Source: an uncultured Candidatus Saccharibacteria bacterium
GTDB lineage: Bacteria; Patescibacteriota; Andersenbacteria; UBA10190
Assembly: GCA_964374055.1 (NCBI GenBank)
Contig: CAYJWZ010000001.1
Span: 1 to 43,660, forward strand
Direction of reading: 5' to 3'
DNA: 43,660 nt
A program made the position numbers and the translations under genes. The notes under the pieces were generated by a model, which searched no databases, had not been told where the DNA came from, and saw only the letters and a list, made by a program, of their open reading frames with translations. Within the stretch, counting starts at the first letter, position 1. Every line of letters begins with the position of its first letter. Shown here in pieces: positions 22,468 to 25,395 of the stretch.

Positions 22468-22566
22468 TCCCTTATCGTATCAGCCCATTGACCGAATGGC
22501 GAGAGAAGGCCTACGCTGCCTGTAGCCCAGTTTCTGATGGTTGTTTGACAATCAAAAGGAGATGTC

Positions 22567-23454
22567 ATGGCAAAAGCCTACCAACCGACTGATCAGATCA
22601 TCATTGAAAGCCGCCCCGACGGAGAAGAAGTTGCTATCCACAACCTACTCTATGGCGGCCCCGGCGGACGAACCATTTTCCAGGGCAAAGTTCCTTTGAC
22701 GAACTTTGTTTCAGGCCTGGCCCGACACGTTGTAAGCTACGCGCCGCTCAACCTTGGCCTGATTCCAGCTGGCATGACACTCCGGCTGCTGGAGCGCAGC
22801 AATGGCTGGTATCTGTTCGTGGTTGAGGAAACACCCGGTATCCACACCGTTCAATGGGTGCGTGACGATTCGAAGGCAAAATATGGTTCCGGTGCGACTT
22901 ATCGGACGGTTACCCTGGCGTTTCCCTGGATCTATTTCTTCCTGGTATTGTCGCCCACCGGAAACTTCTCCCAGCTCAACAGTGTCTACTTTCGCAACAG
23001 TCCCCTGACCTCGCTTGACGACCCGCTGTATGATCCGCACTTCTTCAACTGCTCAGTTGACGCGTATGGCGGCCATTGTTGGATCTGTGTCCAGTCCACA
23101 CACATTGAGGGTCACTCCTTACTGGCTCGCGTTGAGTCCTTCATTCAGTGGTTTTGGAACTCGGGCTTTAACGCCAGTTCTGAAGCCCATGAAACAGCTA
23201 AAGGCAGCTTCTGGACGTACAACCGTGACCGCATTGCTGATCAACGCGTCCAATCAATCGCTGCCTGGGAAAAGGCGTCGCGTGCCAATCCGAATTTTGC
23301 GGTCACTGTTCCGTGGATCAACTCCAACCACACCCCGCTCACCCTATGCCGGGAATTGACTGTCGCCAGTCTACCCGGTTCAGGATCACCGTGCACAGCG
23401 CGCGGCTTCGCCAACCTGATCCAAAACCTCAGTAAAGAAAAGGAGGACAACTAG
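22567..23454 (+). CDS. E2 (UBC)-like conjugating-enzyme candidate (295 aa)
   Basis: AAGGAG (22556-22561) RBS. Beta-rich core (WYLFVVEE, IHTVQWV, YRTVTLAFPWIYFFLVL, SVYFRN) followed by PHFFN-x9-C171-W-I-C174, reminiscent of HPN...C. First gene of the JAB/E1/Ubl cassette. Assignment is by context and pattern only. Confidence 0.45.
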   Translation: MAKAYQPTDQIIIESRPDGEEVAIHNLLYGGPGGRTIFQGKVPLTNFVSGLARHVVSYAPLNLGLIPAGMTLRLLERSNGWYLFVVEETPGIHTVQWVRDDSKAKYGSGATYRTVTLAFPWIYFFLVLSPTGNFSQLNSVYFRNSPLTSLDDPLYDPHFFNCSVDAYGGHCWICVQSTHIEGHSLLARVESFIQWFWNSGFNASSEAHETAKGSFWTYNRDRIADQRVQSIAAWEKASRANPNFAVTVPWINSNHTPLTLCRELTVASLPGSGSPCTARGFANLIQNLSKEKEDN

Positions 23455-24156
23455 ATGCTCTTACCCCACCCACGCCTTGTGGCGACTAACGATCCCACTG
23501 ACTGGCGCCGGAAGGAGTGGCCTGAATTTGTTGACCACTTGGTGCTGACGCCGGAAGGCGTCTTCTCGATTCGCCGGGAAGGAGGATCCATCTACCGAAG
23601 GCCGGCCCAGGCGGCTGACTTCGAACGCATGTATGGTGCGGCCGTAAAAGAACGGCTTTTCCGGGGTGCGGTGGAGCTGAAACAGCGCGCCCCTTACCAG
23701 TTACTGTTGCAGGCGATCAGCTTCTTTCGCTATGTCTGGCAACAGCAACGTCGGGAGGATATCCTGCTTCTCTATTTTTTTGAGAAGAAGCAGCGCTATC
23801 AACTGGTTCACCCACCACTCAAAACGGCTTCCCATGCTCACGTCGACTATACGTTCCCTCCAACCCCGGAAGAGGCCGTGCGTTTCGGCTCGATTCATTC
23901 CCATGGCGCCGAGCAAGCCTCTCATTCCCCGCAAGATTACAAGGACGACCAGCTCTCGCCCGGCGTGCACGTAATTGTCGGACAGCTCGATCGACTATAT
24001 CAGAGCGTTAAATGCATTGCCTCCGATGGTGCTGGTTGTTTCGAGGTCTCGCTGTGGGATGTGTTTACTGAACCGGACATGCCGAAGTTTCCGCCCACGT
24101 GGTTTATCGACCTTCCCCTCACCCAAAGGAGTACTAAGTATGGTCCCGGTTTCTGA
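23455..24156 (+). CDS. JAB/MPN (JAMM) metalloprotease
   Basis: Exact JAMM motif H148-S-H150-x7-S158-x2-D161 (IHSHGAEQASHSPQD, nt 23896-23937) with upstream E101; AGGAGG (23441-23446) RBS; ATG directly abuts the upstream stop. Confidence 0.8.
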   Translation: MLLPHPRLVATNDPTDWRRKEWPEFVDHLVLTPEGVFSIRREGGSIYRRPAQAADFERMYGAAVKERLFRGAVELKQRAPYQLLLQAISFFRYVWQQQRREDILLLYFFEKKQRYQLVHPPLKTASHAHVDYTFPPTPEEAVRFGSIHSHGAEQASHSPQDYKDDQLSPGVHVIVGQLDRLYQSVKCIASDGAGCFEVSLWDVFTEPDMPKFPPTWFIDLPLTQRSTKYGPGF

Positions 24157-24877
24157 TCGCCCCCTCATCCTGATCGGCTTGGGAGGAATCGCCACCGGCT
24201 ACCTGCCGGCATTAGTGCATTATCACGCCACCGGTGTGCTGCCGTTCGAGATGATCTTGCTGGTTGATGGTAAGCGGTTCCGAAGCGAGAATGCCGCTCG
24301 CCAGCATTTTCTCAAAGAAGAAAACAAGGCGGTCGAGCTTAGCCGCCTGTGGGGACGACACTACCCGCATGTACCACTCCGGGTTCGCCCGGAATTTGTC
24401 ACTCGCGAGAACGTGGCTGAAGTAATCCCGGACCAGTCAGTAGTCCTGCTGGCTCCTGATAATCATGCCACTCGCAAGCTTGTCAGTGATCATGTGGAAA
24501 CAGTGGATGACGTTCTGTTGATCAGTGGCGGCAATGATGCTATTGATGAGAAGACAGGCCAGGACGGTACGGAAGGAGCCGTGTTAGTTCACTTCAGGGT
24601 TGGTGGGCAGAACCTTACGCCACCCATCACTCACTATCATCCGGAGATCGCCCATCCCACCGATGGCTTACCAGCCAATATTGGATGCACCGAGCTCGCC
24701 CAGTCACAGCCGCAACTGGCTGCCACCAATTGGCTGGTTGGTCAAACCATGGCCGAATTGCTCTACCGGTATTGCTGCTTACCCAACGACGAAGCCACTC
24801 AAGTAGTTGAGCGTTGGGTCAACAGTCGCACGCGCGCGCAAGCGGATTACGGACCAGTGGAAAGGTTTGTAATCTAA
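24140..24877 (+). CDS. ThiF/MoeB/E1-like adenylyltransferase (245 aa, minimal)
   Basis: Start ATG 24140 with AAGGAG (24126-24131). GLGGIATG nucleotide loop, LLVDGKRFRSENAARQHF (D..N..RQ), NKA, APDNHATR, Cys183 in NIGCTEL. Overlaps the JAB gene by 17 nt. Confidence 0.8.
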   Translation: MVPVSDRPLILIGLGGIATGYLPALVHYHATGVLPFEMILLVDGKRFRSENAARQHFLKEENKAVELSRLWGRHYPHVPLRVRPEFVTRENVAEVIPDQSVVLLAPDNHATRKLVSDHVETVDDVLLISGGNDAIDEKTGQDGTEGAVLVHFRVGGQNLTPPITHYHPEIAHPTDGLPANIGCTELAQSQPQLAATNWLVGQTMAELLYRYCCLPNDEATQVVERWVNSRTRAQADYGPVERFVI

Positions 24878-24907
24878 ACCATTTCCCTTTTCATGAGGAG
24901 AAGCGTC

Positions 24908-25228
24908 ATGTTTTGCGAAGCCTTGATGCCGCCCCCCACCGTCACCCGAACGGCCAAGATCCAACAGGTGCCGCCCGGCCAGCACCACACCATCGTCCTC
25001 AAGCAGGGTTCCCGGAAGGTCTACCTCGTCTGTGAGGATGCTACCGTCGGCGAAGTACGCGAGTACTACGCCAACCAAGTCGGCGCCGCTGGCGTGGATC
25101 AGCTGGAAGTGGCCATCACCTCGGGCAAGGGCACCAAAACCTATGCCCCCGACAAGGCTGCTTCTCTCCTGGTCACGCCCGACATGAAGGTGCTCGAATT
25201 CCGCGCACCGGCCCCCGCCAAGGGCTAA
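24908..25228 (+). CDS. Ubiquitin-like (beta-grasp) protein candidate ending in Gly (106 aa)
   Basis: GAGGAG (24895-24900) 7 nt upstream of ATG 24908. C-terminus ...EFRAPAPAKG then stop. Alternating beta/alpha pattern; last gene of the cassette; terminator follows. Confidence 0.55.
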   Translation: MFCEALMPPPTVTRTAKIQQVPPGQHHTIVLKQGSRKVYLVCEDATVGEVREYYANQVGAAGVDQLEVAITSGKGTKTYAPDKAASLLVTPDMKVLEFRAPAPAKG

Positions 25229-25314: not shown

Positions 25315-25395
25315 AAAAAAGACCCGTAAAACATCCAATGTTTTACGAGTCGCCCCCCCTATACGTTTAGGCCGATTGCCGTGCGGAATGTACAC
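25315..25395 (-). ncRNA. Candidate ~80-nt small RNA (orphan promoter plus terminator, no ORF)
   Basis: Minus-strand promoter at 25402-25430. Minus-strand terminator GACTCGTAAAACAT-tgg-ATGTTTTACGGGTC (25321-25351) followed directly by TTTTTT (25315-25320). Confidence 0.5.

Follow-up and report, generated by a model that had tools for sequence, protein, structure and literature searches.

To our knowledge, conjugation of ubiquitin-like proteins (Ubls) in bacteria has been shown experimentally only for Cap2 of CBASS, for Bil and for Bub. A further class, defined by the gene order Prok-E2_D, JAB, ThiF, was described as operon type 6d by Iyer, Burroughs and Aravind in 2006 (PMC1779556) and later became known as PRTRC; it has so far been a 2006 prediction, and no biochemical test of it was found in the open-access literature. 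Here we analysed a 43,660-nucleotide (nt) stretch of contig CAYJWZ010000001.1 from an uncultured Candidatus Saccharibacteria bacterium (hereafter the window), which holds a cassette of four tightly packed genes encoding a 295-amino-acid (aa) protein (P0001, here named X), a JAB peptidase, a ThiF-type E1 and a Ubl. Judged from the sequences, X is classed as a new form of the already predicted 6d/PRTRC kind, and on balance we favour the reading that X is the Ubl-carrier (E2-like) enzyme of the cassette and belongs to a strongly diverged branch of the Prok-E2_D/PRTRC protein B superfamily. The features of gene X are as follows.

22556-22561, plus strand: strong Shine-Dalgarno sequence AAGGAG, 5 nt before the ATG of X (sequence read)
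22567-23454, plus strand: gene X, E2-position protein of 295 aa (open reading frame (ORF) list)
22567-22695, plus strand: N-terminal three-stranded beta unit, residues 1-43, with strands 8-15, 21-29 and 35-43 (secondary structure; HHalign of X 4-57)
22684-23331, plus strand: core domain, residues 40-255, predicted as one rigid domain (AlphaFold2 (AF2) model; collinear with Prok-E2_D)
23047-23049, plus strand: codon of Asn161, in the motif P-x-L-L-N-x-S, which aligns with the N/H of PFS[NH]V in Prok-E2_D (kept in 144/145 relatives)
23086-23088, plus strand: codon of Cys174, in the motif W-x-C-T/V-Q, which aligns with the invariant Cys (C168) of Prok-E2_D (144/145)
23164-23208, plus strand: motif GFNASSEAHETAKGS, residues 200-214, consensus GFNxSSExHEGxS, which aligns with TPNNxDLYG of Prok-E2_D (conservation; HHalign)

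The X cassette resembles 6d/PRTRC in that (i) the gene in the E2 position is followed directly by a JAB gene, whose product has an extra domain at its N-terminus, and then by a minimal ThiF-like E1, (ii) the Ubl is small and has a terminal Gly, (iii) the E2-position protein conserves a single Cys but, at the HPN position, no His, and (iv) the profiles of the two families align collinearly over the whole length, Cys on Cys and Asn on Asn/His, and the families are bridged by a phage protein. The plasmid-borne E1s most similar to that of the window are found on Firmicute megaplasmids in the order Prok-E2_D, (Prok_Ub-)JAB, ThiF, and the position of X in its cassette is that of the Prok-E2_D gene on those plasmids. 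In contrast to 6d/PRTRC, (i) X is 30-60 residues longer and has motifs of its own (ExPPxxRxxxW, WxCTQ and GFNxSSExHEGxS), (ii) the Ubl of the X cassette has xKG at its C-terminus and often forms one protein with X, (iii) neither ParB, PRTRC D/E nor the "6d alpha-helical protein" was recognised among the window genes or the conserved neighbours, the only ParB_N gene near an X cassette being in one distant locus (L003), and (iv) most X relatives add an AAA+ ATPase resembling Mpa/ARC.

The coordinates, strand and length of gene X in the initial annotation were borne out by the ORF list and the translation. The candidate Cys stretch LYDPHFFNCSVDAYGGHCWICVQS was found in the X translation as quoted, and arithmetic on the ORF places the C171 codon at 23077-23079 and the C174 codon at 23086-23088, as had been stated. 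The remark that no family is recognisable also holds with search tools: X gave 0 matches to Pfam, NCBIfam and PADLOC at E<=1, the PADLOC models matched none of the four window proteins, and searches of the PDB sequences with X, with the X profile and with the Prok-E2_D profile gave no match. For the X domain of 145 relatives, 0 Pfam and NCBIfam models matched, a few of these proteins matching ThiS/TGS in an N-terminal extension, and the names of the sequence clusters that hold X relatives were uninformative. Yet X is no chance ORF, since an exhaustive profile search recovered 1,139 homologous representative proteins at E<=1e-3 (503 at <=1e-10); a word-indexed search recovered 15 close relatives.

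Placement of X in the Prok-E2_D superfamily comes from three convergent results. Profiles were built from 145 X-family sequences (Neff 6.2) and from 30 Prok-E2_D sequences (Neff 4.1), the latter taken from Firmicute plasmids; a TIGR03737 search for PRTRC_B in the 301 genomes around G001 had found none. HHalign aligned X 4-257 with Prok-E2_D 1-233 over 210 collinear columns, with a score of 40.6 and a probability of 74.6% in local and 85.8% in global mode (P 2.7e-5 and 6e-7, respectively), while reversed and 20 column-shuffled controls scored 9.9-18.4. The motif pairs brought together (X/Prok-E2_D) are LPxG/LPERT, LALPY/IPFP, LLN161xS/PFS[NH]V, WxC174/VCW and GFNxSSE/TPNNxDLY. In Bacillus phage vB_BceM_WH1, the 241-aa gp214 is encoded directly before JAB (gp215) and ThiF (gp216); it is matched by the Prok-E2_D profile (8.9e-15, including PFSNC...ICW) and, over residues 9-88, by the X profile (5.5e-8, covering the N-terminal unit and a TTPPGIRKV motif). 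Finally, jackhmmer started from gp214 against 2,939 sequences retrieved 4 Prok-E2_D proteins in round 1, 28/28 Prok-E2_D proteins and 3 X proteins in round 2, and 167/167 X proteins by round 5, with 0 of ~2,700 decoy ORFs in any round. Since the HHalign score exceeds its controls, gp214 is matched by both profiles and the iterative search merges both families without decoys, we assign X, from these sequence comparisons, to a diverged branch of the Prok-E2_D superfamily, with remote but reproducible homology. A Foldseek search of viral models with the full X model also gave strong matches (E 4.7e-13, 3e-9, 3e-8 and 4e-5), one of them a 241-aa protein (template-modelling (TM) score 0.61) that we take, from its length only, to be gp214. 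Prok-E2_D, JAB, ThiF sets were matched in 140 plasmid records (Firmicute megaplasmids) and are also carried by jumbo Bacillus phages; examples are Alicyclobacillus plasmid p1 (L043), whose JAB protein has a Prok_Ub-like N-terminus, B. thuringiensis pAM65-52-3 (L044) and phage vB_BceM_WH1 (L045), where a NADAR-family gene follows the ThiF gene.

Conservation was counted in an alignment of the 145 X-family members, whose mean column identity is 12%. Near-invariant positions are P90, W97, P120 (145/145), L154, N161 (144/145), W172 and C174 (144/145) and, on the C-terminal side, F201, N202, S204, S214, W234, F244 and W250; within the GFNASSEAHETAKGS motif, F201, N202, S204 and S214 each reach 90% conservation or more. 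N161 and C174 are the only near-universal polar residues, and in the lone member without C174 the Cys is shifted by two residues. The initial annotation had named C162, C171 and C174 as catalytic candidates, with a "PHFFN" loop nearby, and had made its E2 assignment depend on a Cys conserved among homologues. Such a Cys is present, and the region was rightly chosen; the conservation counts, however, single out N161 and C174 as its critical residues. C171 is clade-specific (Cys in 24/145, elsewhere mostly Ser (64) or Ala (37)), so that it was rejected as a catalytic residue, alone or paired with C174; C162 is Cys in 66/145. From the loop the Asn stands, while the His at position 158 does not (A 54, N 51, H 12 of 145). 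C174 is therefore the likely carrier (candidate thioester) site for the Ubl tag, as far as conservation can tell, and Asn161 a candidate counterpart of the E2 "HPN" Asn.

In X, then, a single conserved Cys aligns with the Prok-E2_D Cys and no HPN His is conserved. Iyer et al. (PMC1779556) also described an invariant His C-terminal to the Cys of Prok-E2_D; for this His the best candidate in X is H208 (His in 93/145, Asn in 20), and there is no other among the conserved columns. The same segment bears on the idea that X processes or removes the Ubl as a cysteine hydrolase or transpeptidase, with C174 and the His/Glu of SSExHEG as active-site residues. The conserved Cys, the frequent His208 and Glu209 (121/145) would suit such an enzyme; about one member in three, however, has Asn, Ser or Asp at position 208, an intact JAMM peptidase is already encoded in the operon, and the top 50 Foldseek hits contain no papain-like or other thiol peptidase, so that we find this idea scarcely credible.

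Around C174, the CPR (Candidate Phyla Radiation)-centred clade has, at window positions 23050-23088 (residues 162-174), the additional C162 and C171 and usually His170, in the pattern C-x7-H-C-x2-C; the rest of the X family has Val and Ser/Ala at the positions of C162 and C171. C162, H170 and C171 could make up a redox or metal microsite beside C174 that is specific to this clade. The modelled hairpin register (strands 162-166 and 169-173) would place C162 beside residues 173/174, and a regulatory C162-C174 disulfide, where C162 is present, is a matter of speculation. Locus L003, a 57-kb contig of many small ORFs, has tandem X paralogues (L003:5111-5872 and L003:6001-7131). In the first (253 aa) the Asn is kept, the Cys is shifted (NLMNVGVQGYTCVHPE) and the WxC-Q and SSExHEG motifs are lacking, P0158 being of the same type; the second is a Ubl-X fusion. 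The ParB_N gene of this locus lies 5 kb downstream of the paralogues.

The full-length AF2 model of X has a predicted local distance difference test (pLDDT) of 82.8, and residues 40-255 form a single confident domain (pLDDT 90.4, predicted TM score 0.85). Its elements are, in order, helix 44-58, a beta-meander at 71-128 (predicted strands 72-78, 81-88, 91-98 and 112-128), strand 139-143, hairpin 162-173, Cys174, helix 185-198 and short helices. The "four hydrophobic beta-like segments" that the initial annotation saw before the Cys thus correspond to a real predicted meander, in the secondary structure prediction and in the model alike. The protein is indeed twice the size of a minimal UBC domain (~150 aa), as had been noted; residues 40-255, however, fold as one domain, and both ends are conserved. 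In particular, the ~80 N-terminal and ~110 C-terminal residues (including a Trp-rich segment) that had been left as possible E3-like parts are collinear with Prok-E2_D (X 4-257 against 1-233). The N-terminal beta unit is conserved in many relatives and aligns with the N-terminus of Prok-E2_D, and the ends hold the most conserved motifs of the family (GFNxSSExHEGxS, W234, F244 and W250). On the strength of the whole-length alignment and the single-domain model, the ends are part of one family-wide domain, and add-on E3-like domains were rejected.

The order of elements in X (helix, four-strand meander, Cys loop, helices) is that of canonical UBC/E2 proteins (UQ_con, PF00179) and fits the E2 layout described in PMC1779556. 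The Cys follows the meander and stands 11 residues ahead of the central helix, 185-198; N161 precedes it by 13 residues, an arrangement resembling HPN...C. In UBE2D-type E2s the spacing from the HPN Asn to the Cys is 8 residues. Besides this non-canonical spacing, X differs from canonical E2s in the absence of the HPN His, in a beta-hairpin inserted before the Cys and in a domain of ~215 residues as against ~150. E2-fold proteins (Ubc2 and FTS) turn up among the longest alignments of a Foldseek search of the PDB. As a separate observation, UQ_con homologues with an intact HPN...C occur in 51/401 sampled genomes of one bacterial phylum (L052-L081), and several bacterial UQ_con homologues sit in long ORFs (open frame up to ~1,000 aa).

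Several results weigh against the assignment of X to the E2 enzymes. With neither the full nor the core (40-255) model did Foldseek find a significant match to any E2 in the PDB: Ubc2 ranked 48 (E 1.3) with one model and 4 (E 0.18, TM 0.26/0.33) with the other, and the E2-variant FTS ranked 9 (E 0.31). An HHalign comparison with a profile of 29 bacterial UQ_con homologues gave scores of 14.2 for X and 13.4 for Prok-E2_D, against 18.5-20.1 for reversed controls. The link between X and Prok-E2_D itself vanishes in HHalign when thin profiles are used; PF14460 and TIGR03737 match neither X at E<=1 nor the 145 relatives at E<=0.1, and TIGR03737 found nothing in 5 X-bearing genomes. Moreover, the identity of Prok-E2_D as an E2 is itself a prediction drawn from sequence: it goes back to Iyer et al. 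(2006) and the Pfam name, given that neither Foldseek of X nor HHalign of X and Prok-E2_D gave a link to UBC. For a sister Pfam family, Prok-E2_C, the E2 assignment has proved wrong: its domain is an inactive adenylation domain (PMC10557695). Checking the X profile against E2 families upheld the Prok-E2_D link (HHalign 74.6-85.8%) and left bacterial UQ_con at noise level, and checking the AF2 model for a UBC fold showed a fitting order of elements and gave no significant PDB match. Of the E2 assignment in the initial annotation, the E2 position, the family Cys after the meander and the homology to Prok-E2_D stand, while a structural or profile match to UBC is missing; as the UBC tests gave no signal, the assignment still rests on remote homology to a predicted E2 family and on context.

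These results leave some room for X as a non-catalytic partner, either a dedicated Ubl substrate or an adaptor through which E1 and JAB meet targets or the Ubl, its Cys being structural or regulatory. Inactive E2-like or RWD-like partners occur in other bacterial Ubl operons (type 6e, PMC1779556), Foldseek and HHalign do not confirm an E2 fold, and the L003 paralogue without the WxC-Q and SSE motifs shows that non-canonical copies occur. We nevertheless consider a non-catalytic X unlikely: a direct transfer from E1 to the target would leave the Cys without a role, C174 aligns with the invariant Cys of Prok-E2_D, and the retention of one Cys and one Asn in 144/145 very divergent sequences, at so low a mean column identity, argues for catalysis rather than scaffolding. 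X is thus a probable E2-like thioester carrier, as predicted from its sequence.

Three genes follow X, the JAB gene starting on the base after the X stop codon.

23455-24156, plus strand: JAMM/JAB peptidase of 233 aa with an N-terminal extra domain of ~95 aa (Prok-JAB, E 7.7e-4)
24143-24877, plus strand: minimal ThiF-type E1, ~245 aa from the ATG at 24143 (ThiF, E 2.6e-8)
24893-25228, plus strand: ThiS-like Ubl of 106-111 aa, depending on the start codon, which ends in ...APAKG followed by the stop (ORF; comparison with the Ubls of relatives)

The JAB protein has the conserved residues E101 and H148-x-H150-x7-S158-x2-D161 (39 loci) and weakly matches PRTRC_A (TIGR03735; E 6.7e-6, 25.8 bits where the cut-off is 101.8). 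The E1 ORF is open from 23975, and with its likely ATG at 24143 the gene shares 14 nt with the JAB gene; the protein has a GLGG nucleotide loop, DNxxTR and a Cys in "NIGCTEL" (codon 24686-24688), kept in at least 95% of loci. The window Ubl aligns collinearly but weakly (P 0.0027) with the Ubls of relatives, which end in xKG. Just downstream of the Ubl gene, at 25321-25351 on the minus strand and convergent with the cassette, lies a terminator-like 14-bp stem followed by a T-run, which may end a minus-strand transcript or serve as a two-way terminator for the operon.

We then compared the cassette with 38 loci fetched from species-representative (GTDB) genomes of other phyla, covering at least 8 phylum-level groups and including Planctomycetota, Verrucomicrobiota, Acidobacteriota, Deltaproteobacteria, Spirochaetales, "Alcaligenaceae", Bifidobacteriaceae and Eiseniibacteriota. 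The order X, JAB, E1 was found in 38/38 loci and likewise in the metagenome relatives. An ORF of ~100 aa, ThiS-like and ending in ...GEKG, ...IKG or ...AKG before the stop, directly precedes X in many loci; the CPR clade that includes the window has the Ubl gene downstream of E1. In a set of 167 X-family members, which also served for the iterative search, the Ubl is fused to the N-terminus of X in 44, the domain ending in xKG (EKG in 23, VKG in 11). Three members of the X family match Pfam ThiS. A tblastn search of the phage and plasmid collections with a Ubl-X fusion gave no match, and a pattern scan of IMG/VR found none. Within Patescibacteria the occurrence of X is sporadic (6/401 sampled genomes; 1/19 others of the same family), and the gene of the closest relative (72% identity) is at the same place, next to rpiB.

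In 31/38 loci two further genes precede the Ubl gene, encoding a ~400-aa protein and a ~600-aa AAA+ ATPase (for example L021:1182-4326 and L016:1282-4341). The best solved relatives of the ATPase are the proteasome-associated ATPases Mpa/ARC (E 5e-26 over the OB and AAA domains), and weak Prot_ATP_ID_OB matches were also seen. The ~400-aa protein had no match in Pfam or the PDB, and its identification as PafA/Dop was tried and found unsupported. CPR cassettes are without both genes, and a search of the window's genome at E<=1e-5 gave no AAA+ ATPase, which is a weak negative. Other features of these operons include an AAA+ ORF at L028:2695-4785 with a Ubl domain at its C-terminus (residues 596-692, ending in xKG) and no separate Ubl gene, which could be a real fusion or reflect a missed stop or a frameshift; a head gene of the extended operon at L021:5-811 with a weak YbjN-family match (E 0.0011, below the cut-off); and recurring small ORFs of ~100 aa (7 loci) and ~130-270 aa (5 loci) upstream of the ~400-aa protein.

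The partner genes could also be read as a sulfur-carrier pathway of the ThiS/MoaD/CysO type, in which E1 would make a Ubl thiocarboxylate, C174 would act as a persulfide or as the acceptor for a thio-metabolite and JAB would work like Mec+/QbsD. The Ubl is ThiS-like, the E1 is a single-domain relative of ThiF/MoeB, and sulfur operons with JAB, a ThiS-like protein and E1 are known (PMC1779556, Table 1, rows 4a-4e). We judge this pathway highly unlikely, however, since the Ubl ends in xKG and not in the GG of sulfur carriers, a rhodanese domain is missing from the E1, and the neighbourhood holds no conserved biosynthetic enzyme. The Mpa/ARC-like unfoldase as a conserved neighbour in 31/38 loci fits protein tagging instead, and Ubl fusions to X and to the AAA+ ATPase fit the proteolytic release of a protein tag.

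Among the characterised systems, Bub type I (6E.1: BubAB, BubCD, BubE; Ye et al. 2024, PMC11601596) resembles the fused form of the X cassette in that the Ubl is on the N-terminus of the E2-position protein and would have to be cut free by JAB; both have a homodimer-type adenylating E1, and neither encodes an E3. In contrast, (i) Bub uses Ser/oxyester chemistry without a catalytic Cys, whereas X (C174) and the window-type E1 keep a conserved Cys, (ii) JAB and E1 are separate genes in the X cassette and a JAB-E1 fusion in Bub, (iii) a Pfam scan of the X cassette gave no match to the DUF6527 protease, and (iv) X has no sequence match to the solved Bub chains. BilABCD and the type II CBASS proteins Cap2/Cap3 (PMC10557695) have the same parts list (E1, E2, JAB and a Ubl or Ubl-like target end), but their E1s are multidomain or fused to E2, and their E2s are CEHH proteins or are detected by the Prok-E2_A/B models.

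If X is an E2-like carrier, the minimal ThiF-type E1 would adenylate the C-terminal Gly of the Ubl (...AKG), possibly taking the Ubl onto its own conserved Cys, and the Ubl would then be passed as a thioester to Cys174, at the end of the beta-hairpin between the meander and the long helix, with Asn161 in the oxyanion-stabilising role of the E2 "HPN" Asn. X would hand the Ubl to a target lysine. As the cassette encodes no E3, the N-terminal sheet and the C-terminal helical part of X would probably supply the contacts to E1, the Ubl and/or the target, and JAB would reverse the conjugation. In relatives with a Ubl-X fusion, the first task of JAB would be to release the tag by cutting after xKG, in the way that BubC acts on BubAB, a characterised precedent of a Ubl-E2 fusion (PMC11601596).

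A more far-reaching reading, which we hold to be possible although rather improbable, is that the X/Prok-E2_D clade is an independent cysteine-carrier fold of ~215 residues, distinct from UBC, which joins E2 function with E3-like target selection and feeds an Mpa/ARC-like unfoldase in most phyla. If true, this would be a bacterial "tag-and-unfold" pathway parallel to Pup-Mpa and the ubiquitin-proteasome system, and the CPR cassette would be its stripped-down form. Returning to X as a diverged Prok-E2_D-type carrier, neither the X family nor an operon of E1, E2_D-like, JAB and Mpa-like genes was found described in the open-access literature. With X, the 6d class has a far larger wing that is invisible to the family libraries, of more than 1,100 sequence clusters spanning Planctomycetota, Verrucomicrobiota, Acidobacteriota, Deltaproteobacteria, CPR bacteria and phages, and annotation pipelines need a new family model for it. 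The clear residue hypothesis (C174 and N161), the Ubl-carrier fusions that occur in nature and the frequent association with a proteasome-type unfoldase make up a construct set for asking whether bacteria have a thioester-based tag-and-unfold system.

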